Below are positions 8,191-32,000 of a DNA stretch of 32,000 nt, piece by piece. Position numbers and translations under genes: made by a program. The first letter of the stretch is position 1; each line of letters begins with the position of its first letter. Source of the stretch: an uncultured Alphaproteobacteria bacterium (GTDB lineage Bacteria; Pseudomonadota; Alphaproteobacteria; Rhizobiales; Aestuariivirgaceae); NCBI GenBank assembly GCA_963792525.1, contig CAWBWK010000002.1, forward strand, positions 642,285-674,284, written 5' to 3'. The notes beneath the pieces are model-generated. The model was not told the DNA's origin. It was given only the letters and a program-made list of their open reading frames with translations, and searched no databases.

Positions 8191-8194
8191 GGTG

Positions 8195-8554: not shown

Positions 8555-8565
8555 CGGCTTTGCCC

Positions 8566-11791: not shown

Positions 11792-11797
11792 GGGACC

Positions 11798-13551: not shown

Positions 13552-13570
13552 TAATCGCTAATAGCGATTA
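13552..13570. promoter_or_regulatory. Perfect 19-bp palindrome TAATCGCTA-A-TAGCGATTA upstream of trbB
   Basis: Read directly. 9-bp arms with a 1-nt centre, about 165 bp upstream of the trbB start in the trbB/cargo intergenic region. This geometry is typical of a dimeric repressor operator. Confidence 0.35.
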
Positions 13571-13693
13571 TTCGGCGCTTATTGCCTTTGCCAGTTGTAT
13601 GACGTTTCTCAGTTCGAAATGTTGTCCGATACAATTTTGTGAGCGGACATACTCAAACTCAGCGTAATCGACGTGATTGACCCTAAGCGGTCT

Positions 13694-14527
13694 TCAATGG
13701 GTACGCCTCAAGACCGCGTTGAAAAGACCGATCCTTCCTTCTTCGAGATTGCGTAACATATTGCGGCTTATCGTGGCGAAGTCGCTGCCAAGAAGCAGAT
13801 GCAGTCCGAGAGGTGAAGGAGAGCCAGTCTTCGCGACTTTCGCGCGCGCTTGCACCTCCTCAAGCGAAGTTTTCGTCGTGTCCATCCATGTCGTGGTCCG
13901 AAAACCTGCGCGCTCCAGCTTGTCGCGAGTCTCCTCGGCGGTAATCAAGAAGCTGATGTTCGGTTCACGTGCCCACGAGAGCGGATAGAACGGAGGGCCA
14001 CCGCTTCCCGCAACAACATCCTGAATTGCCAATTGGCCTTCCGGCTTCAGCACACGGAACATTTCCGCATACAGCGCAGGGCGGTTAGCTACGTTCATCG
14101 AAACATTCTGGCACCAGACGATGTCGAATATTTGGTCCGCAAAGGGCATGTTGAGCGCATCCCCTTGACGATAGTCCACCAGCGCGCTCAACCCGGTGAG
14201 ATGCGCCAGCATATCGGCGACACGGACGAACCCGGAGGTAAGATCGAGGCCACTGACGCGGCAACCGTACTGCTTTGCCAGAAACCGAGAGGGTCCACCA
14301 ATACCGCAGCCCACATCGACAACTCGCTCGGACCCTCTCAGATGCAAGAGCTCAGCGAGCCTGACGGTCGCGCCACGCTGGCCCGTATGAAACTCGTCCA
14401 CGGCCGCGAGATCATCCGGCGTCAAGCGCTCGACATCTTTGCCGGCCTGTTTGAGTGCGGCCAATATCGTTGCGCCAAGATCGGGACGGTCATAATTACG
14501 CTCGATAGCCTGATGCGCCTCAGCCAT
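13694..14527 (-). CDS. Class I SAM-dependent methyltransferase (small-molecule type)
   Basis: 277 aa. Motif I VVDVGCGIGGPSRFLA, post-I GLDLT, motif II/III FDIVWCQNVSMNV...LKPEGQLAIQD. Confidence 0.85.
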   Translation of the reverse strand: MAEAHQAIERNYDRPDLGATILAALKQAGKDVERLTPDDLAAVDEFHTGQRGATVRLAELLHLRGSERVVDVGCGIGGPSRFLAKQYGCRVSGLDLTSGFVRVADMLAHLTGLSALVDYRQGDALNMPFADQIFDIVWCQNVSMNVANRPALYAEMFRVLKPEGQLAIQDVVAGSGGPPFYPLSWAREPNISFLITAEETRDKLERAGFRTTTWMDTTKTSLEEVQARAKVAKTGSPSPLGLHLLLGSDFATISRNMLRNLEEGRIGLFNAVLRRTH

Positions 14528-14603
14528 GACACGCTCCTATGGTCATTCAGAGCCAGCTTTCGACTTCGACAAAAATGTCGCATGAACGTGCTCAGCAAGC
14601 AAT

Positions 14604-14649
14604 TCAAGATCAAGCACTTCTCGAAGTCAAGATGAAGCACTTCTCGAAG
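14604..14649. repeat. Tandem duplication, 2 x 23 bp (TCAAGAT[C/G]AAGCACTTCTCGAAG)
   Basis: Units 14604-14626 and 14627-14649 differ at one position. They lie 77-122 bp upstream of the methyltransferase start codon. Confidence 0.8.
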
Positions 14650-14781
14650 GAAGAATCATGAACGCCAAGTCTCCTTGTGGCCCGTTTGAGAAGATGATGG
14701 TCATTCGCAAATTGTCCGATCATCACCGGTGAGCGGAACTCCAGCAAGTGATTTCAGCTTTCTTCGAAAATTTGTGCGTTA

Positions 14782-14892
14782 TAGCGGTTCCGGGTTAGTT
14801 TGAATGATACACCAAACCCCTTCATTCCCGCGTTCGCGGGGATGACGAGGTGAAAATGTAAAGACGATTCTGACAAAACCGGAACCGCTCTA
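14782..14892. repeat. About 110-bp MITE-like / intergenic palindromic element
   Basis: Terminal inverted repeats AGCGGTTCCGG (14784-14794) and CCGGAACCGCT (14879-14889). Internal hairpin CCCGCG-TT-CGCGGG (about 14827-14840). No coding potential. Confidence 0.45.
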
Positions 14893-15033
14893 GGTGTCGC
14901 AATGCGGACCTTGCGCGAAGCTCTCAAATTATGCGTTCATGACCTTGAGCAGAACTCGTATTTATTAGCAGAAATGCAGTTGAGGATTTTCGCTGCTTGA
15001 TTTTATACGAATACTGATATATATATCCCTGAT

Positions 15034-15344
15034 ATGAAACGCATATTCTTCCTTGGTGACACGCTGGAACAGATTCGCTCATTTCCAGTGAAGGCCCGCA
15101 GTGATGCCGGTTCAGAACTGCGTCGTGTTCAAATGGGTCTGGACCCAATGGATTGGAAACCAATGAAAACCATTGGTGCTGGCGTGCGTGAGATCAGGGT
15201 GCGGGATGTAGCAGGCGCGTTTCGTGTTGTGATGTGTTGCACAGAGCAGATGCCATTTATGTACTGAATGCATTTCACAAGAAAACACAGAAGACACCCA
15301 AGCATGAATTGGAACTGGCGGCGCGGCGCCTGAAATTGATCTGA
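15034..15344 (+). pseudogene. RelE/HigB-type toxin (phage Gp49-like family), frameshifted
   Basis: MKRIFFLGDTLEQIRSFPVKARSDAGSELRRVQMGLDPMDWKPMKTIGAGVREIRVRDVAGAFRVV, then the frame is lost near 15228-15232. The conserved C-terminus VLHRADAIYVLNAFHKKTQKTPKHELELAARRLKLI* continues in the -1 frame and stops at 15342-15344. One base appears to be missing. Confidence 0.7.
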
Positions 15345-15354
15345 TGGAGAAGGA

Positions 15355-15651
15355 ATGATGGAAAGGAAAATCAAGGTTGAAAGCTTTGCCAATGTCTGGG
15401 ACGCCATCATGGACACGCCCGAAGAGGCGGCAGCCATGACCATGCGTTCAGACTTGCTCATCACTCTCACCGAACATGTCAAAGCCTGGAAACTCACCCA
15501 AGCCGCCGCAGCAAAACGCCTCGACATCACCCAGCCGCGCCTCAACGACCTGCTCCGTGGGCGGATCAATAATTTCAGCATTGATGCGTTGATCAGCTTG
15601 GCCCGAAAAGCGGGTCTGACAGTCGAACTCAAGATCAAGAAGGCGGCTTAG
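15355..15651 (+). CDS. XRE-family HTH antitoxin partnered with the Gp49-like toxin
   Basis: 98 aa, starting 10 nt after the toxin stop. HTH LTQAAAAKRLDITQPRLNDLLRGRINNFSIDALISL. Intact. Confidence 0.75.
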   Translation: MMERKIKVESFANVWDAIMDTPEEAAAMTMRSDLLITLTEHVKAWKLTQAAAAKRLDITQPRLNDLLRGRINNFSIDALISLARKAGLTVELKIKKAA

Positions 15652-15657
15652 ACTTCA

Positions 15658-15739
15658 AGAGGGCAAAGCGATTCCCTTAAGTCAAAAAGGGAAGCGTCCC
15701 CTATTCTCCATTAAAAGAGGGAAACGTCCCCTATTCCCC
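15658..15739. promoter_or_regulatory. Three tandem ~30-bp repeats, each with an imperfect palindrome GGGAA(G/A)CGTCCCC
   Basis: AGGGAAGCGTCCCCTATTC (from 15688) and AGGGAAACGTCCCCTATTC (from 15718) are 30 bp apart. A degenerate copy GGGCAAAGCGATTCCC lies at 15661-15676. All are 150-230 bp upstream of the first ankyrin-cytochrome gene. Confidence 0.4.
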
Positions 15740-15888
15740 CCGCTGTTTTCTCCTCCTGAAAAATCCGAAAGGGACATTCTCATTTTGCGCTAACAGCTTT
15801 GTAGACGGCGTTGTCATCGCAGCGAAATCATGTTAGCATCTTTATGTCCAATAGTGCTGTTTCCCTTGTTTCCCATGGGAGTCGTAAA

Positions 15889-16797
15889 ATGCGCAGATTG
15901 TTGATTTTCATTTTTCTTGCCTTTGCCCAAGTTCCGAATGCAAACTCAGCAGCCATTCATGAGGCCGCCAAAAAAGGCGACCTCGCCGCACTTACTGCGG
16001 CTTTGAACGCCAGAACCGATGTCAACGAGGTCGATGGCGGTGCAACGCCGCTTTATTTTGCGGCGGTAAGGGGGCGCCTGGAAGCGGCAAAGCTTCTCAT
16101 TGCGCGCGGTGCCGACGTCAACGCCAAGACGAAAATCGGTTCGCCCCTGATGGCGGCGGCGGCGAAAGGCGGCCCCGAGCTAGTAAAATTGTTGTTGGCC
16201 AACGGCGCAAATCCAAACGCGGAGCCAGAAAGCCAGACGGCGCTTCATCTTGCTGCGGAGCACGGCTGCCTCGCATGTGTCAAGGCACTGGTCGAAGCGG
16301 GCGCAAATGTGAATGCGCAACACAAGTATACCCCCCGACAAGAAACGCTGGTCACAACCCCCCTCCATCTCGCCATCACTTACAGTCATGGTGACGTTGC
16401 GGACTATCTCATCTCGCACGGCGTCATCTTTCCAAAACCCGCCCCGATTGGGGCCAAACTTACCTCAGCTGATTCCGGCAAAGGGTGGAAGTTCTTTGAA
16501 AAAGAATGTCAATCTTGCCATACCTTCAGTCGGGTACACGGCGACAACTATGGTCCTGGCCTATGGAATGTTGTCGGTCGCAACAAGGCGTCTCTCAACT
16601 ATAGGGGATACTCCAAGACGCTGCGGGCATTGGACGGTGATTGGACTTACGAGGATTTGAATATTTTTCTTTCTGGACCAACCGTCACCACGCCCGGCGT
16701 GAACATGCAAATGCAAGGTGCACCCAACGAGGATGATCGTGTGAATGTGATCGCCTATCTGCGCTCGCTCAGCGACAATCCTGTTCCGCTGCCGTAA
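15889..16797 (+). CDS. Secreted ankyrin-repeat / class I c-type cytochrome fusion protein, paralog 1
   Basis: ORF 15811..16797 trimmed to MRRLLIFIFLAFAQVPNANS-AAIHEAAKKGD (signal peptide). It has 4-5 ANK repeats (GATPLYFAAVRGRLEAAKLLIARGADVNA...). The C-terminal domain carries CQSCH, GPGLWNVVGR, PGVNMQMQG and VNVIAYLRSL. Confidence 0.85.
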   Translation: MRRLLIFIFLAFAQVPNANSAAIHEAAKKGDLAALTAALNARTDVNEVDGGATPLYFAAVRGRLEAAKLLIARGADVNAKTKIGSPLMAAAAKGGPELVKLLLANGANPNAEPESQTALHLAAEHGCLACVKALVEAGANVNAQHKYTPRQETLVTTPLHLAITYSHGDVADYLISHGVIFPKPAPIGAKLTSADSGKGWKFFEKECQSCHTFSRVHGDNYGPGLWNVVGRNKASLNYRGYSKTLRALDGDWTYEDLNIFLSGPTVTTPGVNMQMQGAPNEDDRVNVIAYLRSLSDNPVPLP

Positions 16798-16817
16798 TCC
16801 AAACAAGGAGAAGCGCC

Positions 16818-17729
16818 ATGAACTTCAAGCTGGTGCTGTTTTCTGCGATCCTCTTTTTTGGTCCAGCGGTTTCCCGTGCCGCCGAAATTCATGAGGCCGC
16901 CAAAATAGGTGATCTCGCCACGCTGACTGCGACCTTGAACGCTGGAGCCGATGTCAACAAGTTGGCTGGCGGCGCAACGCCACTCTATTTTGCGGCGATC
17001 AGGGGGCAACTCGAAGCGGCGAAGCTTCTCATCTCGCACGGCGCCGATCTCAATGCCAAGGCGAACTACGGTTCACCCCTGATGGGTGCTGCGGCAAGAG
17101 ATACGCCGGAGCTGGTCAATTTGTTGCTGGCCAATGGCGCTGATCCAAATGCAGACCTGGACGGCAAGACCGCGCTTCATGTTGCGGCTGAGCGTGGCTG
17201 CCTCGGCTGCGTCAAGGCACTGGTTGATGCGGGCGCAAATGTGAATGCGCAACACAGGAAAGTCGGCGGACAGTACATTCTGGTTACGACCCCCCTTCAC
17301 CTCGCCATCTTTTACGAACATGGCGATGTCGCTGACTACCTTGTCGCGCACGGTGTCATTTTGCCGACGCCCGACCCGATCGCTGCCAAACTTGCCTCCG
17401 CCGATCCCGGCAAAGGGCGTGAATTTTTTGAAAGTGAATGCGGCAAGTGCCACTCTATCATTTTGGGACTAGATGATACGCTCGGCCCCAACCTTTGGAA
17501 TATTGTCGGGCGCGACAAGGCGTCTCTCGACTTTGCTGAATATTCCAAGACTTTGCTGGCATTGAAGGGGGACTGGACTTACGAGGATCTCAATACGTTT
17601 CTCTCGGGACCAGCCATCACTACGCCCGGCGTAGACATGCAAACGGAAGGTGCGCCCAACGAGGATGATCGTGTGAACGTGATCGCCTATCTCCGCACCC
17701 TCAGCAAAAATCCTGTTCCGCTGCCGTGA
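16818..17729 (+). CDS. Secreted ankyrin-repeat / class I c-type cytochrome fusion protein, paralog 2
   Basis: MNFKLVLFSAILFFGPAVSRA-AEIHEAAKIGD signal peptide, ANK repeats, then CGKCH, GPNLWNIVGR, PGVDMQTEG and VNVIAYLRTL. AAGGAGAA Shine-Dalgarno in a 20-nt spacer after paralog 1. Confidence 0.87.
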   Translation: MNFKLVLFSAILFFGPAVSRAAEIHEAAKIGDLATLTATLNAGADVNKLAGGATPLYFAAIRGQLEAAKLLISHGADLNAKANYGSPLMGAAARDTPELVNLLLANGADPNADLDGKTALHVAAERGCLGCVKALVDAGANVNAQHRKVGGQYILVTTPLHLAIFYEHGDVADYLVAHGVILPTPDPIAAKLASADPGKGREFFESECGKCHSIILGLDDTLGPNLWNIVGRDKASLDFAEYSKTLLALKGDWTYEDLNTFLSGPAITTPGVDMQTEGAPNEDDRVNVIAYLRTLSKNPVPLP

Positions 17730-17749
17730 TCCAAACAAGGAGAAGCGCC

Positions 17750-18691
17750 ATGAATTTCAAGCTGGTTTTGCTTTCTGCGATCCTCTTCTTTGGTCCAGCG
17801 GTTTCTCATGCCGCCGAAATTCATGAGGCCGCCAAAAAAGGCGACGTCGCTGCGCTGACTGCGGCCTTGAACGCTGGAACCGATATCAACGCGATGGATG
17901 GCGGCGCAACGCCGCTATTCCTTGCGACGGCGCGGGGCCACTTGGAAGCGGTGAAACTTCTCATCGCACGCGGCGCCGATGTCAATGCATTGACGAAAAT
18001 GGGTTCGCCCCTGATGGCCGCTGCGAAAAGAGACACGCCCGAGCTGGTGGTCTTGCTGTTGGCAAAAGGCGCAGATCCAAACGCCGACTTGAAAAGCAAG
18101 ACGGCGCTTCATGTCGCTGCCGAACGTGGCTGCCTCGGCTGCGTCGTGGCATTGGTCGAGGCTGGCGCAAATGTAAATGGGCAACACAGGGATACCGAGG
18201 TCTACGGCGGGCAATATGTGCGGATGACGACCCCTCTTCATCTGGCCATCCTTTTCGATCATGAGGATGTCGCGGCTTACCTCAAGGCGCACGGCGTCAT
18301 CATACCGAAGCCCGCGCCCATCACAGCCAAGCTAGCATTCGCCGATCTCGACAAAGGAAAAACAGTTCTCGAAAACAAATGCCGCCATTGCCATATCGTC
18401 ATTCCGGAAGAGGGCGCAGATTCGACCGTCAATAAGGAAGGTTGGGGCCCTGGCCTATGGAATGTTGTCGGGCGCGACAAGGCGTCTGCCGACTACAAAG
18501 GGTATTCCCCGACCATGAAGGCATCGGAAGGCACTTGGACATACGAAGATTTGAATACGTATGTTGCGGGACCGGCCGTCACCACACCAGGCACCTACAT
18601 GCAAATGGAAGGCGTGCCCGACGAAACTGATCGCGTCAATCTGATCGCCTATTTGCGCACACTCAGCGACAGTCCTGTTCCGCTGCCGTAA
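17750..18691 (+). CDS. Secreted ankyrin-repeat / class I c-type cytochrome fusion protein, paralog 3
   Basis: ORF 17726..18691 trimmed to MNFKLVLLSAILFFGPAVSHA-AEIHEAAKKGD. It has the same spacer and Shine-Dalgarno as paralog 2. Motifs CRHCH, GPGLWNVVGR, PGTYMQMEG and VNLIAYLRTL. Confidence 0.87.
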   Translation: MNFKLVLLSAILFFGPAVSHAAEIHEAAKKGDVAALTAALNAGTDINAMDGGATPLFLATARGHLEAVKLLIARGADVNALTKMGSPLMAAAKRDTPELVVLLLAKGADPNADLKSKTALHVAAERGCLGCVVALVEAGANVNGQHRDTEVYGGQYVRMTTPLHLAILFDHEDVAAYLKAHGVIIPKPAPITAKLAFADLDKGKTVLENKCRHCHIVIPEEGADSTVNKEGWGPGLWNVVGRDKASADYKGYSPTMKASEGTWTYEDLNTYVAGPAVTTPGTYMQMEGVPDETDRVNLIAYLRTLSDSPVPLP

Positions 18692-18718
18692 TCCAACGAG
18701 CCATGATCCGCTTTCCGA

Positions 18719-19669
18719 CTATTTTTTGACAGGTACTGATGGCGGAAGTGGTGGTGGGTTGTCACTCATGGTGCGCATGTAAGCGATGAGGTCGGCCCGG
18801 GTTGCTGGGTCCTTCAATCCAACGAAACGCATCTTTGTGCCTGGCACATAATCCAAAGGCGAGGAGATGAATGCGTTGAACTCAGATAGTGTCCATTGGC
18901 CGTGCAGACCGGAAAACGCCTTGGAATAGCCGACACCTTCAACGCCTGCTTTATTCTGCCCAAGAATGCCCCAAAGATTGATTTTGGTGCTGCTCAAGCC
19001 ACCTTTATCAACGCTGTGACAATAGTTGCAAGACATCTTGAATATCCTTTCACCTGCGCTTGGCGAGGCAGATGTGAGGAGGCCCGTGACCGGTTTCACA
19101 ATTGGGCCGCGAGCACCGTACGCCCTGAGCAGATCGACAATGTGATTTTGGTTGTTAAAAGCGGCTGAATGAATTGCCGGGTAACCGGGGTAACCGGGAA
19201 ATTCAAGTTTTTCCCCAGTATCTGCGCTGCGCGTGTTCACGTCGGCACCATTTGCGACGAGGAGATCTACGACACCCGCATGGCCACCTTCGGCAGCAGC
19301 GTGTAAAGGGGTTGTTCCATCGTTCCAACGGGCACCCACATCAGCGCCATGGGCAATGAACACGGCAACAATGCTTTCATTGCCTTTTCGGGCCGCCAGG
19401 TAAAGCGGTGTGCCCAATATTTTGTGGGCGGCGTTGACGTTGGCTCCGTTGGCGATCAACAATTCGGCCAACGCCTTGTTTCCCGACAAACTCGCCTGAT
19501 GCAGCGGCGTACCGAGCGATCTTTGGTTCTGGTTGATGTCCGCGCCACTGGCAATCAGTTGCTTCACCTTTTCAATGTCGCTACCCTTGACCGCATCATG
19601 AAGTGGACCTGCATTGGACTGTGAAACCAGCGCTATCAAAACACCGACGAATAACAGGAGCTTGCCCAT
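18719..19669 (-). CDS. Secreted ankyrin-repeat / class I c-type cytochrome fusion protein, diverged paralog 4
   Basis: ORF 18719..19714 trimmed to MGKLLLFVGVLIALVSQSNA-GPLHDAV (GGAGGG upstream). It has 5 ANK repeats (GTPLHQASLSGNKALAELLIANGANVNA...). Motifs CNYCH, INLWGILGQ, PGTKMRFVG and ADLIAYMRTM are closest to mitochondrial/c2-type cytochrome c. Confidence 0.85.
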   Translation of the reverse strand: MGKLLLFVGVLIALVSQSNAGPLHDAVKGSDIEKVKQLIASGADINQNQRSLGTPLHQASLSGNKALAELLIANGANVNAAHKILGTPLYLAARKGNESIVAVFIAHGADVGARWNDGTTPLHAAAEGGHAGVVDLLVANGADVNTRSADTGEKLEFPGYPGYPAIHSAAFNNQNHIVDLLRAYGARGPIVKPVTGLLTSASPSAGERIFKMSCNYCHSVDKGGLSSTKINLWGILGQNKAGVEGVGYSKAFSGLHGQWTLSEFNAFISSPLDYVPGTKMRFVGLKDPATRADLIAYMRTMSDNPPPLPPSVPVKK

Positions 19670-19933
19670 ATTCCCTCCGTTCAAAGACGCAGCCCGCGCA
19701 AGGAAGAATTCCAAATGGCTCCCGCTACGCGGCTAAAATCTCGTCACGTGGCAGCCTCAATCAACACATGCAAAATCGCGAGCTTCATTTCAGCATAGTA
19801 TGTGGGTCGAGCCGTTGCAACAACACCCCATTCCGCACCGCAGAGTCCAGAAGCGTCGCCTTTCCACCCTCATCCGTCAACCCGTCGACGCGGCCCATGG
19901 GAAAACCGGAACCTTCCCTTTTCACGTATAGTC

Positions 19934-21518: not shown

Positions 21519-22625
21519 TCACAGGTCCATGCCGTCGTTGGGATCAAGTGAGACTTGGCGCGCGACACCTTGGACGATCTGGGTCATGCGACGTGCGCGC
21601 GTTGCGTCGTCATCGGCGTCGTCTGCAAACTCGTCGTGGAATTCGTTGGTCGGTGTTTGTTTTTCCGCTGCCACCTCGGGCCGGATGAGTTCAGGTTGTC
21701 TTCGCTTTTCCGATCCGGTCGGGTCTTCATTGTCTTCAGAGTTTCCATAGCTGGGAACAGGTGATCCGGATGGACTGGCGGGTAACGGCAATACGCTCCA
21801 GTCGTCATGTTTGGTCGAGCTTCCGTGGGCTGGTTCGGGCGGCGGCAGGACACGCTCCAACAATCGGCAATCTTCAAAATAGCGCACCTTCTTTGCGCGG
21901 ATCGGCGGTGTGCCAGACACCATCACGATTTCATCTGCTGGAGGCAATTGCATCACCTCGCCGGGCGTGAGCAGCGGTCGCGCGGTTTCTGAACGCGAGA
22001 CCATCAGATGGCCAAGCCAGGGACTGAGACGATGTCCAGCATAGTTTTTCATGGCCCGCATTTCGGTCGCCGTGCCCAGCGCATCGGAGACGCGCTTTGC
22101 CGTGCGCTCATCATTGGTGGCAAAACTCACGCGCACGTGGCAGTTGTCGAGGATGGAATTGTTTGGGCCATAGGCCTTCTCGATCTGATTGAGTGACTGG
22201 GCGATCAGGAAACTCTTGAGCCCGTAACCCGCCATAAAAGCGAGTGCGCTTTCGAAAAAATCGAGCCGTCCGAGGGCCGGGAACTCATCAAGCATCAGGA
22301 GCAAACGGTGACGCTTCCCCTTCGCGTTCAGGTCTTCGGTCAGACGCCGCCCGATCTGATTGAGGATGAGGCGGATGAGTGGCTTGGTGCGGACGATGTC
22401 CGATGGCGGCACGACCAGATAAAGCGTCGACGGTTGATCACCGCTAACCAGCTCGCCGATGCGCCAGTCACAGCGCCGCGTCACTTCGGCGACAACGGGA
22501 TCGCGGTAGAGGCCCAAGAAGGACATGGCTGTGGAAAGAACGCCGGAGCGCTCATTGTCCGACTTGTTGAGGAGTTCGCGCGCGGCACTGGCAATCACGG
22601 GATGGGGGCCGGCCTCGCCTAGGTG
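21519..22625 (-). pseudogene. traG: Type IV coupling protein TraG/VirD4, C-terminal ~368 codons only; 5' end removed at the IS3 boundary
   Basis: The frame is open right up to the IS end (HLGEAGPHPVIASAARELLNKSDNERSGVLSTAMSFLGLYRD...LLMLDEFPALGRLD (Walker B region)...). The N-terminal TM segments and Walker A are absent from the window. Confidence 0.9.
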
Positions 22626-22677
22626 TGAACCGCACCGGGTTTGCCGGAGACCTTCAACCTGACTAAGGAAGAAGGCT

Positions 22678-23010
22678 ATGGAAAAAAGTAAAACATCAAA
22701 TCGTTATTCACCTGAAGTGCGGGCGCGCGCCGTTCGCATGGTGCTGGAGCATCAAAGCTCCTACGAAACGCAAGCGGCCGCGATTGTGGCCATTGCCCCT
22801 AAGATTGGTTGTATCACGGAGACATTGCGGCTGTGGGTTAGGCAGGCTGAACAGGATAGCGGCAGTCGTGATGGTGTTACCAGCGGTGAGCGTGATCGGA
22901 TCAAAGAGCTTGAGCGGGAAGTGCGTCAGCTACGGCAGGCCAATGAAATTCTGCGAAAGGCTTCAGCTTATTTTGCGCAGGCGGAACTCGACCGCCCGTT
23001 CAAGCCATGA
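22678..23010 (+). CDS. IS3-family transposase OrfA (HTH / leucine zipper)
   Basis: 110 aa, [17 protein letters not shown]...[32 protein letters not shown] is a typical IS3 OrfA. Confidence 0.9.
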
Positions 23011-23912
23011 TCAGTTTTATAGATGATCAGCGGACCGTTTATGGGGTCGAGTCGATCTGCAGAGTTCTGCCAATTGCCCCATCCACTTATTATCATCAAT
23101 TGGCATGTCGTGCCGATCCAACAAAGCTGTCACCACGTTGCCAGCGAGATGTTAGTTTAAAGCCGAAGATCCAAAAAGTTTGGGACGATAACTGGAAGGT
23201 CTATGGCGTCAGGAAAACCTGGCGGCAGCTGCGCCGTGAAGGCGTTGATGTGGCAAGGTGCACGGTTGCTCGCCTCATGGCTGGCATGGGATTGCGGGGT
23301 ATTGTTCGGGGAAAGAGTTTAAAAACAACGATCTCTGACACTTCTGTGCCGTGCCCGCGTGACAAGGTGAACCGTCAGTTCCGAGCATCTGCCCCAGACA
23401 TCCTTTGGGTCAGTGATTTTACTTACGTGTCAACGTGGCAAGGATTTACCTACGTTGCATTCATCATCGACACCTTTGCCAACCGCATTGTTGGCTGGAA
23501 AGTGTCACGGTCTGCAAAGACTGACTTCGTTCTGGATGCGCTCGAGCAGGCGCTTTATGCACGCCGACCTGCCCATCAGGGTGGATTGATCCACCACAGC
23601 GACAGGGGAAGTCAGTATGTCTCTATCCGTTACACTGAACGTTTGGCAACAGCTGGAATTGAACCATCCGTTGGCAGCGTAGGCGATGCCTATGACAATG
23701 CTTTGGCTGAAACAATCAACGGCCTTTATAAAACCGAAGTCATCCGCAGGCGCTGCTCGTGGAAAACAATGGAGGACGTAGAAATGGAAACTCTCAAATG
23801 GGTCGATTGGTTTAATCATCGTCGTTTGCTTGAGCCAATCGGCAACATCCCGCCGGCAGAGGCTGAAGAAAACTATTACGCCATGATGGACATCTCCAAA
23901 ATGGCAGCTTAA
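23007..23912 (+). CDS. IS3-family transposase OrfB (DDE / rve integrase core)
   Basis: 301 aa, WVSDFTYV...HHSDRGSQY...[15 protein letters not shown] supplies the D, D, E catalytic context. The frame is -1 relative to orfA and is open from 22947. It is probably expressed as an OrfAB fusion by frameshifting. Confidence 0.9.
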
Positions 23913-23951: not shown

Positions 23952-24804
23952 CGCCCTTCTTCTTCGCCGTCTTTTCAAAATCCCATTCATGGAAGCGGTC
24001 GCCGCGTGGCATGAACCTCCACACGGGTCCAGCCTTGGGCCAGAAGTTCATCGCGCTTGGCTGCAATAGCCTTGACCTGCAAGGCCCAGAAACTGTCGGG
24101 ATTGGCGAAGTAACTTCTCCTCGCCAAACAGGTCTGACACGATCTCACCTTGATAGGTGGCAAGGTCAAACAGGGCAGTCTTTGTCGAAATGTTCTGCCC
24201 GCCAAGCAACCAACGCTTCAAGCCTTGGCCCATGGGGGCTTGCTGTTCCTCGTCTCTCATAGAGGACCAACCAGTCCTTTTGCTGCTGCTTTGAGGCCAT
24301 GGTCAAAGCCCGCAAGGTTTCGGCGTCGATGTCCTCGGTGCGATACAGTTGCCTGATCTTGGGGGCCAGATTGGCAATGGCCAAACGGCGCTTCACCGTC
24401 AATTCTGTCACACCAAAGACATTGGCGATATCTTCAATGCTGCGGCCTTCCTTCAACAAGCGCTGGAAGGCTTCGAACTGGTCCATGTCGTCCATGGGCA
24501 GATGGGCGACATTCTCAATCAATGACGCTTCAACCGCTGCGGCGTCATCGCCCTTGGCCATGATGGCACAAGGCACGGCTTCGACCTCAAGCCCTTCCTT
24601 TTCCAGGGAACAGGCGGCAAGGAAGCGCCGTCGTCCGGCAATGATTTCGTAGCCGCTTCCGTTCTTGCGAACCAGAAGCGGTTGCAGAATGCCGCGTTCC
24701 TTGATCGAGGGAATGAGGTCTTTGTAGTCAGCCTTCTTCACACCATGCCTGACATTGACTTTGGCGATGGCGAGTTCTGACAAAGGGATATGCAAAAGTT
24801 CCAT
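23952..24804 (-). pseudogene. ParB-like nuclease/partition-domain protein, three frameshifts and 3' end truncated at the IS3 boundary
   Basis: MELLHIPLSELAIAKVNVRHG...YEIIAGRRRFLAA (ParB box) ...GVTELTVKRRLAIANL (HTH). The frame then moves one base at about 24258, about 24110 and about 24010. The segments are ..DWLVLYE / RDEEQQAPMGQGLKRWLLGGQNISTKTALFDLATYQGEIVSDLFGEE / SYFANPDSFWALQVKAIAAKRDELLAQGWTRVEV / MPRGDRFHEWDFEKTAKKKG. The sequence stops at the IS end. Confidence 0.8.
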
Positions 24805-24809
24805 GAGAA

Positions 24810-25043
24810 TTACTCCGTGGGTTGGGGTTGGGAATTGGCGCTGAACAGGTCCATCTGGTTCCGTGCCACATCGTCGAAGAGACCGATGTCACAGGGCTTT
24901 TGCAGCCTGTCGGAACCAAGGGGATGCGCGGCCAACGCCTCAAGCCGCGCTTTCATCGAAACGGGGCGAACGCCGGGGACCAGCGCTTGCGGTCCGATGG
25001 GTGTCGCTTCCGTTTCGAAGGGGATGGGAGTGGCGGCAATCAT
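24810..25043 (-). CDS. Hypothetical protein between ardC and parB-like
   Basis: 77-aa ORF whose ATG forms an ATGA junction with the ardC stop and which ends 5 nt before the parB-like start. No motif recognised. Confidence 0.4.
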   Translation of the reverse strand: MIAATPIPFETEATPIGPQALVPGVRPVSMKARLEALAAHPLGSDRLQKPCDIGLFDDVARNQMDLFSANSQPQPTE

Positions 25044-25966
25044 GCCGCTTGCTCCAAATCAGTTGATGATTGTGCTTCGGCCTTGAAGGCCAGAATGAAG
25101 TCGCAAGCTTTGGAGGCAAGGCTTGCCGCCTTGACGATGGCGCGGGCGTCTTCTTTCAGGACTTGCAGCCAATTGCCGATATAATCGGCATGGCGGACGG
25201 TGGGAATAATGCCAAGCGATGCGCAGACAAACGCCGTTGCCATTTCGGCAACCAGTTCCTCGCGGGCGTAATCTACCGTGCCGAATTTGGTGGTGAGGTT
25301 GCGGTCAAGGCGGGTCTTGTGGCCTGTCCAGTGGCCAAGTTCATGGAAGGCCGTGCGGTAATAATTGATCTGGTCGGTGTAGGCCGTCTGGTTGGGAATG
25401 CGGATAAAGTCTTCTGACGGCACATAGAAGGCCTGATCACCACCAATGCGGAAATCCGCACCCGTGGCACCAATCAGCGCCTCGGCTTCCGGCACAATCT
25501 GCCGCTCGGTTTGTGCAACGGGTGGCGCAATCAAGCCCCTTGGGCAAGCCGTCGCATTGCTCGGCATTGAACACCGTATAGCGTTTGAGGAAGGCAATGG
25601 CTGATGGTTCGTCGCCTGTTTCCTCGGCGCGGCTGCTTTTCCTTCTGCGGCACAAACTTGTCGGCGAAATAGACATGTGTGCCCTTCTCGCCCTTCCGCA
25701 CACTGCCACCCATGGCGATGCATTGCTTGAAGGTCACCCAATAGGGAGAAGCAAAACCGCGTTCCTCAAGCGCAGACCACAACAACAGAATATTGATGCC
25801 GGAATAGCTGCGGCGGGTCAGGCCATTGACGGGAAGCCCCAAGGGGCAAAGCTGGCGGGTGCTGGTCCAAGGCTGCACCCATGGCACGATGCCGCGTTCC
25901 AGTTCGGCAATGATCTTGTCGGTGATATCTCTGTAGAGATTGTCTCTTCTGAATGCCCTTGGCCAT
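25040..25966 (-). pseudogene. ardC: ArdC-type antirestriction protein (ssDNA-binding N-domain plus HExxH metalloprotease), three frameshifts
   Basis: ATG at 25966 behind GAGGAGGA. Segments are MAKGIQKR / NLYRDITDKIIAELERGIVPWVQPW...RSYSGINILLLW...TFKQCIAMGGSVRKGEKGTHVYFADKFVPQKEK / SRAEETGDEPSAIAFLKRYTVFNAEQCDGLPKGL / IAPP...TAFHELGHWTGH. The frame moves one base at about 25945, about 25645 and about 25540 (GGGG run). Total length is 927 nt, consistent with three single-base insertions. Confidence 0.85.
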
Positions 25967-26703: not shown

Positions 26704-27924
26704 ATGTATGAGCGGTTTGTAGAGCGGCGGGCGGAGCAGGCCCTTTCGGATACCCCAGTGGTCCTGATCGTAGGACCGCGCCGGGCAGGCAAAACCACGC
26801 TTGTCCGAAAAATGGGGGAAGCCGGTCGAACCTATATCACGCTCGACGACCAGACAGTGCTCGAAGCCGCAAAATCCGATCCGACCGGCTTCATCCGGGG
26901 CCTGGACCAAGCCATCATCGATGAGATTCAGCGTGCGCCAGACTTGCTGCTGGCGATCAAAAAGACGGTCGATGAGGATTATCGTCCGGGTCGCTTTCTA
27001 CTCACGGGTTCGGCGAATGTGCTGACCTTGCCACGGATTGCCGACAGTTTGGCGGGGCGTATGGAAACCATCCAGATGCTGCCGCTGGCGCGGGCCGAAA
27101 TCGAAGGTCGACCACCAACTTTCTTGGAGCGCCTCTTCGAGGGGAAGCTACAGAGCCAGAAAGATGCGGCGATTGGCGATGATCTTGTCCGGCTGGTCCT
27201 GCTCGGAGGATTTCCGGAAGCGATCAGCCGCGAAACCGAACGGCGTCGGCAGGATTGGGCGCGCTCCTATCTCAACTCGATTCTTACCCGCGATCTGCGG
27301 GACATCGCGGAGGTGGAAAAACTCACCGAGCTCCCAAAATTTGTGCGGCTGCTGGCCGAGCATTCCGGCCAGTTGGTCAATTATTCGCAGTTCGGGGGCA
27401 GCATTAACGTCAGCCACAAAACCGGACAACGTTATGTCGGCTTGCTCGAACAGGTCTTCCTGATCGCGACGGTGCAGCCCTGGTTCACCAATGCCCTTAA
27501 GCGGATCGTCAAAACTCCGAAACTGCATTTTCTCGATTCCGGTCTGCTGGCCAGCGTGCGCGGCCTGACATTCGCCAAGGTAAAGGCTGACCGCGGAACC
27601 TTTGGCGCACTGTTGGAAAGTTTCGTCTTCTCGGAAGTGTTGAAGCTGATGACAGCCTCGGACCTGCGGTTAACACCCTATCACTTCCGGGACCGGGACA
27701 AGCGTGAGGTGGACATCGTGCTGGAGCGCGATGACGGAATGATTGTCGGCATCGAAGTCAAATCGAGCGCAACAGTTACGGGTGGAGACTTCAGCGGTTT
27801 GCGAGCGCTGGCCGATGCCTGCGGAGACCGCTTTGCCTTTGGCGTTGTTCTCTATGATAGCACTGATGTCGTGCCGTTCGGTGACCGGCTGGCGGCGGCG
27901 CCTTTATCGTGTTTGTGGAAGTGA
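26704..27924 (+). CDS. AAA-family ATPase with C-terminal DUF4143 domain (COG1373-like)
   Basis: 406 aa. Walker A GPRRAGKTT, Walker B AIIDEIQ, and a C-terminal ...HFRDRDKREVDIVLERDDGMIVGIEVKSS restriction-endonuclease-like motif typical of AAA_14/DUF4143 proteins (recall). Confidence 0.8.
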   Translation: MYERFVERRAEQALSDTPVVLIVGPRRAGKTTLVRKMGEAGRTYITLDDQTVLEAAKSDPTGFIRGLDQAIIDEIQRAPDLLLAIKKTVDEDYRPGRFLLTGSANVLTLPRIADSLAGRMETIQMLPLARAEIEGRPPTFLERLFEGKLQSQKDAAIGDDLVRLVLLGGFPEAISRETERRRQDWARSYLNSILTRDLRDIAEVEKLTELPKFVRLLAEHSGQLVNYSQFGGSINVSHKTGQRYVGLLEQVFLIATVQPWFTNALKRIVKTPKLHFLDSGLLASVRGLTFAKVKADRGTFGALLESFVFSEVLKLMTASDLRLTPYHFRDRDKREVDIVLERDDGMIVGIEVKSSATVTGGDFSGLRALADACGDRFAFGVVLYDSTDVVPFGDRLAAAPLSCLWK

Positions 27925-28039
27925 AGGCCATGGCTTCGCACGAAAAAAGACACTTCCGGCTATCACATGCTCACGCATTAGATGGTGATTGGCAATGGGG
28001 ACCGGGAGTCCACCCTACACTCAACATCGGGGGAAAATC

Positions 28040-29632
28040 ATGACGATTGAACGCATTATTGTTCGAAATTATCGTGGATTGCGAAACGCCGATGTCACCC
28101 TCGGTTCTGGCACCAATATCATTGTCGGCAACAATGAAGCCGGCAAATCCACCCTGCTCGAAGCTATCAACTTGGCATTGAAATGTCAGTTAGGCCGACG
28201 ACCGATCGCTTACGAACTTCACGCGTTTCTATTCAACACCCTCACGGTTGCTGAGTTCATCGCTAGTCACCGCGCTAAGAAACCGAATCCGCCGCCAGAA
28301 ATCCTGATCGAGCTATATCTGAAAGATGATAAGGCGCTCGCCGACCTGAAAGGTTCGATCAATAGCCTCATGCTTGATCAACCTGGCATAAGTCTTACCA
28401 TAAGGCTCGACGAGAATTTTAAAGAGGAATATCGTGAGTATATCTCAGATCCTGATGCTTTAAACGGAATTCCGGTCGAATATTATGAGATCATTTGGCA
28501 AAGCTTTGCGGGTCAACCGCTTCAGACTCGTGCTATTCCGATCAAATCGGTTCTGATTGATCCGAGTTCCATTTCCAACACTAATGCCGCTAATCGCTAC
28601 ATCCTCGAAATCGTACGCGATTACTTAGACAAGTCGCAGGCCGTCGATCTGGCGCTGTCGTATCGCAAGATGCGCGACGAGTTTGTCAGTGATGCTCGAA
28701 TCGCAGCAATCAACACGGACCTGGCATCAAAGACAGGGATTGTATCGGACAAAGCGCTGTCGGTCGCAATGGACGTGACGTCTAAAGCCGGATGGGAGTC
28801 TAGCGTTCTTCCGCACCTCGATGGCATTCCGCTCACACTCATAGGAAAGGGTGAGCAGAACGCAGTTAAGGTGAAACTCGCCATGGAAGCATCGGACAAG
28901 TGCCATGTCTTCCTTATGGAGGAGCCTGAAAATCACCTGTCTCACAGCAACCTCAACAGGCTCATAAACAAGATCATCGAAAAATCAGATGGCCGACAAC
29001 TTATCATTACTACGCACAGCAGCTTTGTCCTGAATAAGCTGGGCATCGATAATACGCTAATGTTCAACGGACAGAATTCGGTCCGGCTTAACGATTTACC
29101 GAAAGCCACCGAAGCCTATTTCCGAAAGCTTCCTGGATATGACACGCTGCGGATGATCCTTTCGGAAAAGACACTGCTCGTCGAAGGACCGTCGGACGAA
29201 TTGTTGGTGCAAAAAGCGTTCCAACAGACTCATGGGAAAATGCCGCTCGAAGCGGGAGTCGAAGTGATCTCGGTGAATTCGCTCGCGTTTAAGCGCTTCC
29301 TCGATATCGCCAAGCTTCTGAAACTTGATGTTTGCGTGATTGGTGACAATGACGGAAAGTCCGCCACCAAGGAAGCAGGATACGCCGCCTATTCGTCTGA
29401 AAAGACCATAAGCATCCACATAGGCAAGGATGACGATTATCCAACCCTAGAGCCGCAACTTGTCAAAGCGAACGGACTTGCGAAACTCAACCGGATATTG
29501 GGTAAAACATATGCCGATGAAGCTGGGCTGATTCATTACATGACGAACCATAAGGCTGACACCGCGCTGATGCTGTTCGACAGCACAGAAGCAATTGATA
29601 TCCCGGAATACATTAAAAATGCAATCGCATAA
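28040..29632 (+). CDS. gajA: OLD-family ATP-dependent nuclease (ABC-type ATPase plus Toprim), GajA-like
   Basis: ORF trimmed to MTIERIIVRNYRGL (GGGGGA upstream). Walker A GNNEAGKST, Walker B/D-loop VFLMEEPENHLS, H-loop ITTHS. C-terminal Toprim LLVEGPSDELL ... VIGDNDGK. 530 aa. Confidence 0.8.
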   Translation: MTIERIIVRNYRGLRNADVTLGSGTNIIVGNNEAGKSTLLEAINLALKCQLGRRPIAYELHAFLFNTLTVAEFIASHRAKKPNPPPEILIELYLKDDKALADLKGSINSLMLDQPGISLTIRLDENFKEEYREYISDPDALNGIPVEYYEIIWQSFAGQPLQTRAIPIKSVLIDPSSISNTNAANRYILEIVRDYLDKSQAVDLALSYRKMRDEFVSDARIAAINTDLASKTGIVSDKALSVAMDVTSKAGWESSVLPHLDGIPLTLIGKGEQNAVKVKLAMEASDKCHVFLMEEPENHLSHSNLNRLINKIIEKSDGRQLIITTHSSFVLNKLGIDNTLMFNGQNSVRLNDLPKATEAYFRKLPGYDTLRMILSEKTLLVEGPSDELLVQKAFQQTHGKMPLEAGVEVISVNSLAFKRFLDIAKLLKLDVCVIGDNDGKSATKEAGYAAYSSEKTISIHIGKDDDYPTLEPQLVKANGLAKLNRILGKTYADEAGLIHYMTNHKADTALMLFDSTEAIDIPEYIKNAIA

Positions 29633-30746
29633 CCGCATTGTACTGGCATGCGCCGGGTCGGGAAAAACGACCGCCCTCGTTCGCGATGCGTGTGAAGACC
29701 CCGTTCGAAGCGCGGCGCTGATTACCTATACGATCAACGGTAGCAGTGAACTGTCTCGTGCCACGTATGACCACTCACATGCTATCCCACCCAAGATTAC
29801 AATCGGCACCTGGTACGCATTTTTGCTTCGGCATTTCGTGCGACCATATCAAAATCACCTCTATGTGCCGCGCGTTGTAGGTATTAACTTCACGCGCGGA
29901 CAATCCGCGCGTTATGCGAAGACGACCGACATTCGGAATCATTATTTTTCGCGCGAAGGCATTATTTATCTCGACAAAGTGTCGAAATTTGCATGCGAAG
30001 TAATTAAACGCACTAACGGTTTGCCGATCCGGAGACTGGAACAGATTTTTGACCGCATCTATATCGATGAGAGCCAGGATCTTGCGGGCTTTGACCTGGA
30101 ACTTGTTGAGCTACTGCTGCGATCCAACACACAAGTTATTCTGTTTGGCGATCACCGCCAAGCTACTTACGCGACCAACGACTCGGGAAAAAACAAAAAA
30201 TTTGCGCGCGCGAATGTCGTCGTCAAATTCCAAGAATGGGAAAGGGCTGGGCTGTGCAAGGTCGAGTACGAGACGCACAGTCATCGCTGCGTTCAGGCGA
30301 TTTGTGATTTTGCAGACCAATTCTACCCTGCGTTCCCAAAGACGAATTCCCTTAATAAGCAAATAACCGGCCATGACGGTGTTTTTGCCGTCGAGGCCAG
30401 TCAAGTTGCTACATACTTGACGCGCTTTGCGCCGCAGCCGCTTCGCTATAACCGAACACACAAGGGCATTCCCGGTTCTCCGATTAATTTCGGGAATGCG
30501 AAGGGCATGACCTTTGACCGCACGTTGATCTATCCGCACGGTCCGCTCGCCAAATTTCTTCAGAGCGGAGATGTTGCCGACGCTGGCGCTGAAATTCCGA
30601 AGCTATACGTAGCCGTCACGCGCGCTCGGCAAAGCGTTGGGTTTGTGGTGCCTGACGGTTGCACCGTGAAAGCGATGTCCGTTTACCGACCGGATACAGG
30701 TGGAGAGAGCACGAGAGAAAATGATCCGAATTCTACACACAGCTGA
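29619..30746 (+). CDS. gajB: UvrD/PcrA-like superfamily 1 helicase, GajB-like (short, 375 aa)
   Basis: The ATG at 29619 overlaps the gajA 3' end by 14 nt. Motif I ACAGSGKTT, motif II IYIDESQD, motif III LFGDHRQATY, motif VI LYVAVTRARQSV. Confidence 0.75.
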   Translation: MQSHNRIVLACAGSGKTTALVRDACEDPVRSAALITYTINGSSELSRATYDHSHAIPPKITIGTWYAFLLRHFVRPYQNHLYVPRVVGINFTRGQSARYAKTTDIRNHYFSREGIIYLDKVSKFACEVIKRTNGLPIRRLEQIFDRIYIDESQDLAGFDLELVELLLRSNTQVILFGDHRQATYATNDSGKNKKFARANVVVKFQEWERAGLCKVEYETHSHRCVQAICDFADQFYPAFPKTNSLNKQITGHDGVFAVEASQVATYLTRFAPQPLRYNRTHKGIPGSPINFGNAKGMTFDRTLIYPHGPLAKFLQSGDVADAGAEIPKLYVAVTRARQSVGFVVPDGCTVKAMSVYRPDTGGESTRENDPNSTHS

Positions 30747-31953
30747 TTGGCATATCGGTCAAACGCTTCGCGGGTTTTCGCGAGAGCAGGAGCACCGCAA
30801 GGTGTTTGAGCGGCTCGAAGAGATCGTCGTAGAGCGGGATGTCGATGCACTTGTCATCGCCGGTGATGTGTTTGATAGTCAGAACCCCTCCGGGGAGTCA
30901 CAACAGCTTTTCTACGATACGCTCGTGCGGCTGAGCCGCGCACATCCACGCATGACTACGGTAATTGCTGCCGGTAATCATGATGCAGCTGGTCGCTTGG
31001 AAGCGCCGCGGCCTCTGTTGGAAGCATTCAACATCCGCGTCGTAGGCAATGTTCGGCGGCGTGAAGGCGTGGTCGAGGCTGCGCGTCATCTCGTTTCTAT
31101 CACTGACGCAAGCGGTGCGGTGGCCGCTCATGTACTTGCAGTCTCTTATCCAACCGCAGCTTGCCTTCCGAATTTGACACGACTGGATGGTGAAGCAGGT
31201 TCGCCCGTCATTGCCGGCGTGCGAAGCCTATATGCCGAATTGGTAGGCACGTTACGGGGTCGGATGGATGGCATGCCGTTCGTCCTCACGGGACATCTCC
31301 ATGTCGCGGGCGGCATCGAGTCAGAAGGCGCGGAGCGCCGAATTCTGGTCGGTGGTCAGCATGCCGTGCCGCCTGACGTGTTCCCGGCAGAAGCGAGCTA
31401 TGTGGCGCTTGGCCATTTGCATAAGGCTCAGGCTGTCGGTCGTGAGACCATCCGCTATTCTGGTTCATTGATCCCTTTGTCGGCGACAGAAATTCCTTAT
31501 GCACATGGGGTCACACTTGTGAGCGTCGACGGTACATCGGTCCAATCCGAACATATCTCGATTGACCGTCCAGTTCCCTTCGTCCGCCTTCCTGAGGCGG
31601 GAGATATGCGCTTGGGCGAATTTGGTGATCATCTGGCAGCAATGGATCTCTCATCGGACCTATTGATTCATGAACGACCGTTCGTACAAGTCAAGCTTGC
31701 CCGAGAGGGGCTATCGCCTGGGTTCAGAGAAGAAATTGACCGCATCGCCGAGAGCTTTCCGGTGCGCGTGGTTGATACTCGGGTCGCGGCAATACCCGGG
31801 GCGTTAATTGAACTGACCATCACCGATCCTATGATACGGCTGGCAGAAAGAGATCCCGAGGATCTGTTTAAGCTCGCATTTGAACGCACCTTAGGGGTGG
31901 CTCCGGATGCCGCGCACCTGGATGTTTTCCACCGGGCACGGGCGGAGGCATAG
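30721..31953 (+). CDS. sbcD: Exonuclease SbcD (Mre11-family phosphoesterase)
   Basis: MIRILHTADWHIG, VIAGDVFD, AGNHD, GHLH are calcineurin-like phosphoesterase motifs I-IV. The ATG (GGAGAGAG upstream) lies 26 nt inside the gajB-like reading frame. Confidence 0.9.
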   Translation: MIRILHTADWHIGQTLRGFSREQEHRKVFERLEEIVVERDVDALVIAGDVFDSQNPSGESQQLFYDTLVRLSRAHPRMTTVIAAGNHDAAGRLEAPRPLLEAFNIRVVGNVRRREGVVEAARHLVSITDASGAVAAHVLAVSYPTAACLPNLTRLDGEAGSPVIAGVRSLYAELVGTLRGRMDGMPFVLTGHLHVAGGIESEGAERRILVGGQHAVPPDVFPAEASYVALGHLHKAQAVGRETIRYSGSLIPLSATEIPYAHGVTLVSVDGTSVQSEHISIDRPVPFVRLPEAGDMRLGEFGDHLAAMDLSSDLLIHERPFVQVKLAREGLSPGFREEIDRIAESFPVRVVDTRVAAIPGALIELTITDPMIRLAERDPEDLFKLAFERTLGVAPDAAHLDVFHRARAEA

Positions 31954-31955
31954 TA

Positions 31956-32000
31956 ATGCGGATATTGGCTATACGCGGCGAGAATCTGGCAAGTCTTGCT
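31956..32000 (+). CDS. sbcC: SbcC-like SMC-family ATPase, first 15 codons only
   Basis: ATG 2 nt after the sbcD stop, behind GGAGG. MRILAIRGENLASLA matches the usual SbcC/Rad50 N-terminal strand. The remainder is outside the window. Confidence 0.6.
   Translation, partial: MRILAIRGENLASLA

Follow-up and report, generated by a model that had tools for sequence, protein, structure and literature searches.

We analysed a 32,000-nt stretch of DNA from an uncultured alphaproteobacterium (Rhizobiales, Aestuariivirgaceae; NCBI GenBank assembly GCA_963792525.1, contig CAWBWK010000002.1, positions 642,285 to 674,284), hereafter the window. At its right end lie four consecutive genes on the same strand, gajA, gajB, sbcD, and sbcC. 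GajA and GajB make up the anti-phage system Gabija, and SbcD and SbcC make up SbcCD, a nuclease that processes hairpins and blocked DNA ends. The block is likely a two-gene Gabija cassette seated in a variable defence slot upstream of a mobile sbcD–sbcC pair (sbcDC), within a defence island of a decaying Trb-type conjugative element. The adjacency of Gabija and SbcCD is probably adaptive and not a matter of chance, given that five different Gabija subtypes adjoin sbcDC in unrelated lineages, but it is not obligate.

Layout of the four-gene block

gajA and gajB overlap by 14 nt, gajB and sbcD overlap by 26 nt, and the ATG of sbcC follows the stop codon of sbcD by 2 nt (coordinates in Table 1). 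An earlier note on this DNA had given the same start codons for gajB and sbcD, the same overlaps, and the same gap. Direct reading of the sequence bears out all of them, together with the operon-like packing that the note described.

The metagenomic contig L004 (L numbers denote the loci compared) is colinear with the window at 88.5% nucleotide identity across 28022–31999. Within the family, the 14-nt overlap of gajA and gajB is shared: L004 and the Gabija loci L006–L009 have it too. The 26-nt gajB/sbcD overlap is specific to the lineage of the window; L004 instead has an ATGA overlap of 4 nt, and the 3′ end of its gajB reads ...ggc tgg aga gag cag gag ggg gaA TGA. Compared with L004, the window lacks 1 nt near 30700, where ggctgg has become ggtgg. 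Because the deletion shifts its last codons, the window gajB bypasses the ATGA stop and ends at a TGA inside sbcD, so that its final ~16 codons (from ~30700) form a frameshifted tail reaching 26 nt into sbcD. The 26-nt interlock is thus an accident, which arose through a 1-nt deletion bypassing the ancestral ATGA stop/start junction.

The GC content rises from 0.485 in gajA to 0.517 in gajB and 0.569 in sbcD, a real step in composition. We infer that the four genes are co-transcribed and that translation of sbcD is coupled to that of gajB.

Identity of GajA and GajB

GajA matches the PADLOC GajA profile PDLC00102 with 741 bits over profile positions 1–529 of 532, and contains the Pfam domains AAA_15 and OLD-like_TOPRIM. 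Its closest solved structures are those of B. cereus GajA (8WY4 and 8SM3; E 1e-10). The Walker A motif (GNNEAGKST), the EEPENH motif, and the Toprim motifs EG..D and DND occupy invariant columns in alignment A2, and all are present in the window protein. GajB matches the PADLOC GajB profile PDLC00148 with 431 bits, its residues 4–359 aligning to profile positions 2–368 of 369, and scores 37.5 bits against Pfam UvrD-helicase (cut-off 23). Motifs I (GSGKT), II (DESQD), III (GDHRQ), and VI (VTRA) are invariant in alignment A4, which includes relatives down to 40% identity. A sequence search with GajB against solved structures, solved GajB included, returned no match. The two profile matches confirm the assignment of the pair to Gabija made in the earlier note.

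The same note took the short helicase as a sign of a divergent subtype. This proposal fails, because existing PADLOC profiles of 369 and 365 positions fit the protein end to end. A metagenome scan with a GajA alignment retrieved 80 loci at 38–64% identity; GajB is detectable in 75 of them, each matching ~345–365 residues of the window helicase. Given these profiles and 75 relatives with the short form, we rejected a new subtype. Apart from the frameshifted GajB tail, GajA and GajB show no additional domain and no loss relative to the PADLOC profiles. The gajAB pair of the window is an ordinary two-gene Gabija system of a catalogued short-GajB subtype. We know of no member of this subtype that has been tested experimentally.

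Identity and distribution of sbcDC

SbcD scores 202 bits against TIGR00619 (cut-off 77.65) and matches the E. coli SbcD structures 4LTY and 6S6V with E 5e-35. All phosphoesterase motifs align (DWH, GDVFD, GNHD, and GHLH), and the protein is full length at 410 aa, as in all relatives. Against NCBIfam NF008206, the model of the E. coli-type enzyme, it scores 173 bits, below the cut-off of 450. The window holds 45 nt of sbcC; in L004, the colinear block continues for at least 941 aa. The SbcC homologue of L001 has 1256 aa and contains AAA_23 and SbcC_Walker_B domains; E. coli SbcC has ~1048 aa. SbcD and the start of sbcC are thus what the earlier note had called them. Its remark that GajA, GajB, and SbcD are intact while the neighbouring transfer genes are damaged also stands: the three proteins give full-length profile matches, whereas the TraG/VirD4-type gene is truncated and trbE is split (see below).

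A megablast search of plasmids matches the sbcD–sbcC part only, at 83–88% nucleotide identity (Rhizobium, Bradyrhizobium, and Methylocella plasmids), and the homology begins exactly at the start of sbcD. In a scan of genomes, SbcD falls into a tight clade at 75–91% amino acid identity, and the next identities are at most 61%. The clade spans Hyphomicrobiales, Sphingomonadales, and Rhodospirillales, with members in Rhizobium, Bradyrhizobium, Methylocella, Nitrobacter, Oryzibacter, Sphingomonas, Stellaceae, Aliidongia, and Acetobacteraceae. The sbcDC of the window belongs to a clade spread horizontally on alphaproteobacterial plasmids and integrative elements and is no vertically inherited housekeeping gene pair.

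Two small genes (183 and 145 aa) after sbcC are conserved in several members of this clade (L003 14071–15063; L002, L011, L012, and L013), and neither has a Pfam or PADLOC match. When run on SbcD, on SbcC, and on these two small genes of the relatives, PADLOC gave only weak generic ATPase or phosphoesterase matches, or none.

The slot upstream of sbcD

The genes upstream of sbcD differ among the relatives. SIR2-HerA, bona fide by PADLOC (678 and 1030 bits), is joined to sbcD by an ATGA junction in L001, L003, L010, L012, and L014, and in L001, L010, and L014 it is preceded by AbiEi–AbiEii. The resulting four-gene cluster SIR2-HerA-SbcD-SbcC occupies 5550–14014 in L001 and recurs in L003, L010, L012, and L014. 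An SMC-like ATPase and a DUF3223 protein take the same place in L011, where they overlap sbcD, and in L021 and L092, where a gap intervenes. AbiE only is found in L002 and L013, WYL regulators lie directly upstream in L016 and L020, and L090, L091, and L093 have other ATPases in this place, or metabolic genes and a normal intergenic region. In the R. indicum, B. quebecense, B. septentrionale, and Bosea plasmids, sbcDC stands alone with its own upstream intergenic region.

Some loci retain pieces of other occupants. About 70 nt of the HerA 3′ end remain before sbcD in L002 and L013. In L011, the DUF3223 (‘HamC’-type) gene at 9246–10004 carries a 13-codon gajB-derived tail (YRPDAGWRE..GE, then stop) and has an ATGA overlap with sbcD. 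It ends in YRPDAGWREPSGE and a stop codon, nearly identical to the GajB tail of L004, YRPDTGWREQEGE and a stop codon. In accordance, the homology between the window and L011 starts at 30684, inside gajB. The chimera is a leftover of cassette replacement. On the other side of the cassette, the window carries an abiEii 3′ remnant upstream of gajA (Table 1), which is the left scar of the ancestral AbiE-Gabija-SbcCD arrangement and shows that the AbiE toxin–antitoxin pair, found at the edge of the slot in relatives, has been replaced here. The intact PDC-S01 ATPase directly upstream of gajA occupies the position of AbiEii in L004. L070, too, has a distant homologue of this ATPase (26%) immediately before sbcD.

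Since the slot of the relatives holds other defence pairs or 3′ remnants, sbcDC is the constant anchor and the upstream pair the exchangeable part. In a neighbour-joining tree of sbcD, the Gabija-linked copies nest among copies linked to other defence pairs. L001 and L014 are 95–96% identical in SIR2 and HerA and only 76% identical in SbcC. Among 214 plasmids with HerA of the L001 type, only the three closest have it abutting sbcD, indicating that SIR2-HerA is no more tied to sbcDC than Gabija is. Nor is sbcDC exclusive to Gabija partners, because it is also found behind SIR2-HerA, the SMC-like ATPase and DUF3223 protein, or AbiE, or alone.

Gabija beside sbcDC in Bacteroidota

As a background control, we ran PADLOC on the two nearest open reading frames (ORFs) on either side of sbcDC in distant loci (SbcD 30–61% identical; 58 loci upstream and 54 loci downstream). 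The commonest families around these distant sbcDC pairs are GajA and GajB. Gabija lies directly beside sbcDC in five of 40 Bacteroidota loci, in both gene orders and in four subtypes other than that of the window. In Flavipsychrobacter (L051; PADLOC 00090 / 00103), gajA-gajB-sbcD-sbcC are tightly packed and flanked by genes on the opposite strand. In Flavobacterium shii (L087; PADLOC 00070 / 00117), gajA-gajB are separated from sbcD-sbcC by a 367-nt gap. The reverse order is seen in Pedobacter (L054; PADLOC 00079 / 00135), where a recombinase precedes sbcD-sbcC-gajA-gajB, in Sporocytophaga (L056; sbcD-sbcC-Old-gajA-gajB), which has the subtype of L051 (GajA 67% identical), and in Algoriphagus (L060; sbcD-sbcC-Old-like-gajA; PADLOC 00066). 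The additional stand-alone Old-type gene between sbcC and gajA lies at 10058–12256 in L056 and 15008–16942 in L060, and a further one is present in L178 (6837–8990).

All three sampled relatives of the L051-type GajA at 68–69% identity reside in blocks of a serine recombinase and sbcD-sbcC-gajA-gajB (L174–L178); the organism is named for two of the three sources, and both are Bacteroidota. Pairwise identities among L051, L174, L177, and L178 are 67–80% for GajA, 59–71% for GajB, 55–70% for SbcD, and 40–50% for SbcC. The pairs rank identically for GajA, GajB, and SbcD, and SbcC is too diverged to rank. The concordant ranking indicates that the block has been kept together over deep divergence. 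A serine recombinase lies divergently beside sbcD in L054, L063, L174, L177, and L178. In L174, a Wadjet-like four-gene set follows gajB (12898–19129).

The five Bacteroidota loci compare with ~0.006 expected, a figure that assumes Gabija in ~15% of genomes (review PMC10568477) and random placement and otherwise rests on a rough null of our own; the Poisson P is 4e-4 even with a generous null of 0.6 expected. Chance juxtaposition, suggested by close Gabija relatives without sbcDC and by the other pairs in the slot, was dropped as the sole explanation after the control scan had returned Gabija. The adjacency of OLD-family/Gabija systems and sbcDC recurs in two phyla, with five subtypes of Gabija and in either gene order, and is unlikely to be due to chance. 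In the papers searched, neither a Gabija-SbcCD nor a SIR2-HerA-SbcCD gene cluster is described.

The view from the Gabija side

The earlier note had raised the possibility that SbcCD is a component of Gabija in the clade of the window. The close relatives do not bear this out. L004 (GajA 94% identical), with the order AbiEii-GajA-GajB-SbcD-SbcC, is the only one that shares the block. L007 (GajA 87%) and L006, L008, and L009 (GajA 83%) are complete two-gene units with unrelated neighbours, and L005 (GajA 83%) has a degraded gajB. The general link between Gabija and SbcCD, which the note had also proposed, fares better: it has independent support from the five Bacteroidota loci and from L174–L178, and two Acinetobacter-type relatives without sbcDC speak against it. 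On plasmids, no accession occurs both among the 28 SbcD records, all of them listed, and among the 45 listed of 71 GajA records. In L007 (4841–6516), a BrxR/WYL regulator stands beside the Gabija pair and is followed by a distant SbcD-like phosphoesterase (34% identical), which is cut by the contig end and may be part of another nuclease module beside Gabija.

Several observations weigh against a functional association of Gabija with SbcCD in the window. No sbcDC adjoins Gabija in L005–L009, so that the linkage is rare from the Gabija side. Of the 80 metagenomic loci of the window's subtype, 51 extend at least 1.5 kb past gajB and 50 at least 1.5 kb before gajA, and SbcD or SbcC is found beside Gabija in none of either set (0/51 and 0/50). 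SbcCD is not a fixed part of this Gabija clade. In the L051 subtype, sbcDC is missing beside the Gabija of Acinetobacter gerneri and of a second relative with similar surrounding genes, and many Bacteroidota sbcDC pairs 60–85% identical to the Gabija-linked ones have no Gabija. Other defence genes also neighbour sbcDC. PDC-S06 stands after sbcC in another three loci and PDC-S46 does so in one, BrxA is another neighbour, and in Nitrospirillum (L028) SIR2-HerA of another subtype lies upstream of a 46%-identical sbcDC. Part of the signal could therefore reflect a general hotspot for defence genes. The enrichment estimate is built on 80 loci and the assumed null. A consensus promoter scan gave 7 promoter-like sites against 4.1 expected, none of them before gajA or sbcD, and a terminator scan gave nothing convincing; the consensus promoter and the terminator scan are both uninformative for an alphaproteobacterial element. 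Finally, the favoured explanation is drawn from gene order and sequence, with sbcC known here from 45 nt.

Proposed role of SbcCD and alternative explanations

Recent experiments indicate that DNA ends and hairpins are where OLD-family systems, Gabija included, tell self from non-self, a decision set by the host nucleases RecBCD and SbcCD. The P2 OLD protein responds to hairpins and to DNA ends left unprocessed; SbcCD works against this activation, and deletion of sbcD potentiates the defence (bioRxiv 10.64898/2026.07.10.737580). Gabija acts on DNA ends kept free of RecBCD, and RecBCD shields self DNA (PMC12407980; PMC12904381). The interplay of P2 Old and SbcCD suggests a functional logic for the linkage of Gabija and SbcCD. 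In the model that we favour, SbcCD would modulate the DNA-end and hairpin substrates that Gabija senses, and a co-carried SbcCD would tune Gabija. It may act as a safeguard, limiting self-targeting by Gabija in hosts with weak end-processing of their own, or as a helper, aiding the attack on protein-capped or hairpin ends of phages and plasmids, or in both ways. The model would involve no obligate four-subunit complex of GajAB and SbcCD. Both the coupling of Gabija with SbcCD and the tuning function are putative, reasoned from the arrangement of the genes and from the behaviour of related systems.

The Gabija pair might instead sit beside sbcDC purely by chance, sbcDC being a conserved part of the element backbone next to a recombination-prone cargo site and functionally unrelated to the cargo. 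Several features fit such a hotspot: the variety of occupants of the slot (SIR2-HerA, SMC-like ATPase and DUF3223 protein, AbiE, PDC-S06, PDC-S46, and WYL regulators), the remnants that indicate repeated replacement, the serine recombinase next to sbcD in the five loci named above, the Bosea sbcDC without an adjacent defence pair, and the lack of sbcDC in most Gabija relatives. Chance does not easily accommodate the choice of neighbour, because Gabija makes up five of ~9 defence or candidate systems found next to sbcDC in Bacteroidota, despite the far greater abundance of restriction-modification systems in genomes. It also sits poorly with the five distinct subtypes in both gene orders and with the linkage, across deep divergence in L051, L174, L177, and L178, of four genes, three of which rank the loci alike, and it leaves unexplained why mobile elements retain a 5-kb sbcDC. 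We therefore regard a pure hotspot as possible but doubtful. At the other extreme, GajA, GajB, SbcD, and SbcC could form an obligate four-component machine with its own SbcCD as effector, the stronger proposal of the earlier note. The overlap of the frames hints at stoichiometric co-expression, L004 conserves the block, and tight four-gene clusters exist in L051 and L174–L178. Such a machine is nevertheless highly improbable, given the complete two-gene units with unrelated neighbours among relatives at 83–87% GajA identity, the further 51 metagenomic loci of the subtype without sbcDC, and the same sbcDC (86–96% amino acid identity) standing behind SIR2-HerA or with nothing upstream. GajA and GajB moreover have neither gained nor lost a domain against the PADLOC profiles, accidental tail aside, and Gabija is described as a GajA–GajB system (review PMC10568477).

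Mobile SbcCD could also be a defence or exclusion factor in its own right, cleaving hairpins on single-stranded plasmid DNA entering the cell or phage DNA that is palindromic or capped, and cluster with Gabija merely because defence genes cluster. In support, the clade lies almost always among defence genes on plasmids and integrative elements, WYL-type regulators stand directly upstream in L016 and L020, and transposon insertions in sbcD restored conjugation into natural resistant E. coli isolates (bioRxiv 10.64898/2026.07.06.735840). SbcD and SbcC match no PADLOC system at meaningful scores, and the preference for OLD-family neighbours is not explained by this proposal alone; as the whole account it is highly improbable. 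It is compatible with the favoured explanation and does not exclude it.

A broader extension of the favoured explanation, a tuning SbcCD beside an exchangeable Gabija cassette, can be put forward only tentatively. Elements of Alphaproteobacteria and Bacteroidota may carry SbcCD with a long SbcC as an immune hub, a portable processor of ends and hairpins coupled to an adjoining end-sensing system. With the same reserve, its partners might be Gabija above all, and also SIR2-HerA, the SMC-like ATPase and DUF3223 protein, and PDC-S06. Such a hub would either restrain self-targeting by its partners where the host lacks RecBCD, or open up for them ends closed by a protein cap or a hairpin. If so, Gabija-SbcCD would be a previously unrecognised four-gene defence configuration. 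The natural, recurrent pairing of Gabija and SbcCD at the operon level would be the genomic counterpart of the physiology set by RecBCD and SbcCD, and it offers a testable construct, two genes versus four. It also points to the sbcDC carried by plasmids and integrative elements as an anchor at which defence cassettes are exchanged; this could help to find new systems, including among unannotated neighbours.

Comparison with known systems

Like the prototype Gabija of Bacillus cereus VD045, the window encodes an OLD-type ABC ATPase–Toprim protein and, after it, from a start codon that overlaps the first gene, an SF1 helicase. Unlike in the prototype, GajB is ~120 residues shorter and the pair is joined to sbcDC in an operon-like manner. 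The B. cereus proteins form a GajA:GajB 4:4 supramolecular complex (8SM3; PMC10568477).

SbcCD resembles the E. coli enzyme (4LTY and 6S6V) in its aligned phosphoesterase motifs, in the position of the sbcC start directly after sbcD, and in the AAA_23 and SbcC_Walker_B domains of the relatives' SbcC. It differs in scoring below the NF008206 cut-off, in the length of the relatives' SbcC (1256 aa), in its mobility, and in its location within defence islands. The SIR2-HerA of the relatives, which is absent from the window, fills the slot that Gabija fills here, in the same orientation and with its ATGA junction to sbcD, but the proteins are unrelated to those of Gabija. The order SIR2-HerA-SbcD-SbcC recalls the archaeal operon herA-mre11-rad50-nurA.

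P2 Old, a class 1 OLD protein, is likewise a sensor of the OLD family, and it needs for its activation the DNA ends or hairpins that SbcCD removes. There, however, SbcCD is a chromosomal host enzyme opposing activation, and no co-encoded SbcCD has been described. Lamassu and Wadjet also employ Rad50-like ATPases in immunity, and SbcC gives a weak LmuB match (103 bits). In contrast to these systems, SbcC here pairs with a true Mre11-type SbcD and has no LmuA/LmuC or JetABD partner.

Other genes of the window

Table 1. Features of the window, with positions counted from its first nucleotide
Feature	Position	Strand	Description
gajA	28040–29632	+	ATG 28040, TAA ends 29632; OLD-family ABC ATPase and Toprim nuclease (class 2 OLD), 530 aa
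gajB	29619–30746	+	ATG 29619, TGA ends 30746; short UvrD-like SF1 helicase, 375 aa
sbcD	30721–31953	+	ATG 30721, TAG ends 31953; Mre11-type nuclease subunit, 410 aa
sbcC 5′ end	31956–32000	+	ATG 31956; Rad50-like ATPase; gene cut by the window end
abiEii 3′ remnant	27926–27999	+	74 nt; blastn match to L004 604–677, 75%, inside an AbiEii-homologous ORF
AAA_14 and DUF4143 ATPase	26704–27924	+	Pfam AAA_14 89 bits, DUF4143 152 bits; PADLOC PDLC04790 570 bits, full length; candidate defence family PDC-S01
ArdC-type zincin metallopeptidase (MPTase-PolyVal)	25040–25741	-	Plasmid/integrative-element establishment type; adjoins the defence island
ParB_N protein	24166–24804	-	Plasmid/integrative-element establishment type; adjoins the defence island
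Trb-type conjugation genes	3900–13500 and 21519–23912		75–77% identical to Sphingobium and Mesorhizobium plasmids
Ankyrin-repeat protein with C-terminal cytochrome c domain	15811–16797	+	First of three in tandem
Ankyrin-repeat protein with C-terminal cytochrome c domain	16818–17729	+	Second of three in tandem
Ankyrin-repeat protein with C-terminal cytochrome c domain	17726–18691	+	Third of three in tandem
Ankyrin-repeat protein	18719–19714	-	Fourth ankyrin-repeat protein

The conjugative element looks immobilised. Its TraG/VirD4-type coupling protein covers only positions 209–455 of the 468-position profile, the N-terminal ~200 residues being missing, and adjoins an IS3-type transposase. The trbE region is broken into several ORFs. 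Between the two sets of conjugation genes lie the four ankyrin-repeat proteins; the combination of ankyrin repeats with a cytochrome c domain is unusual for a bacterial mobile element.

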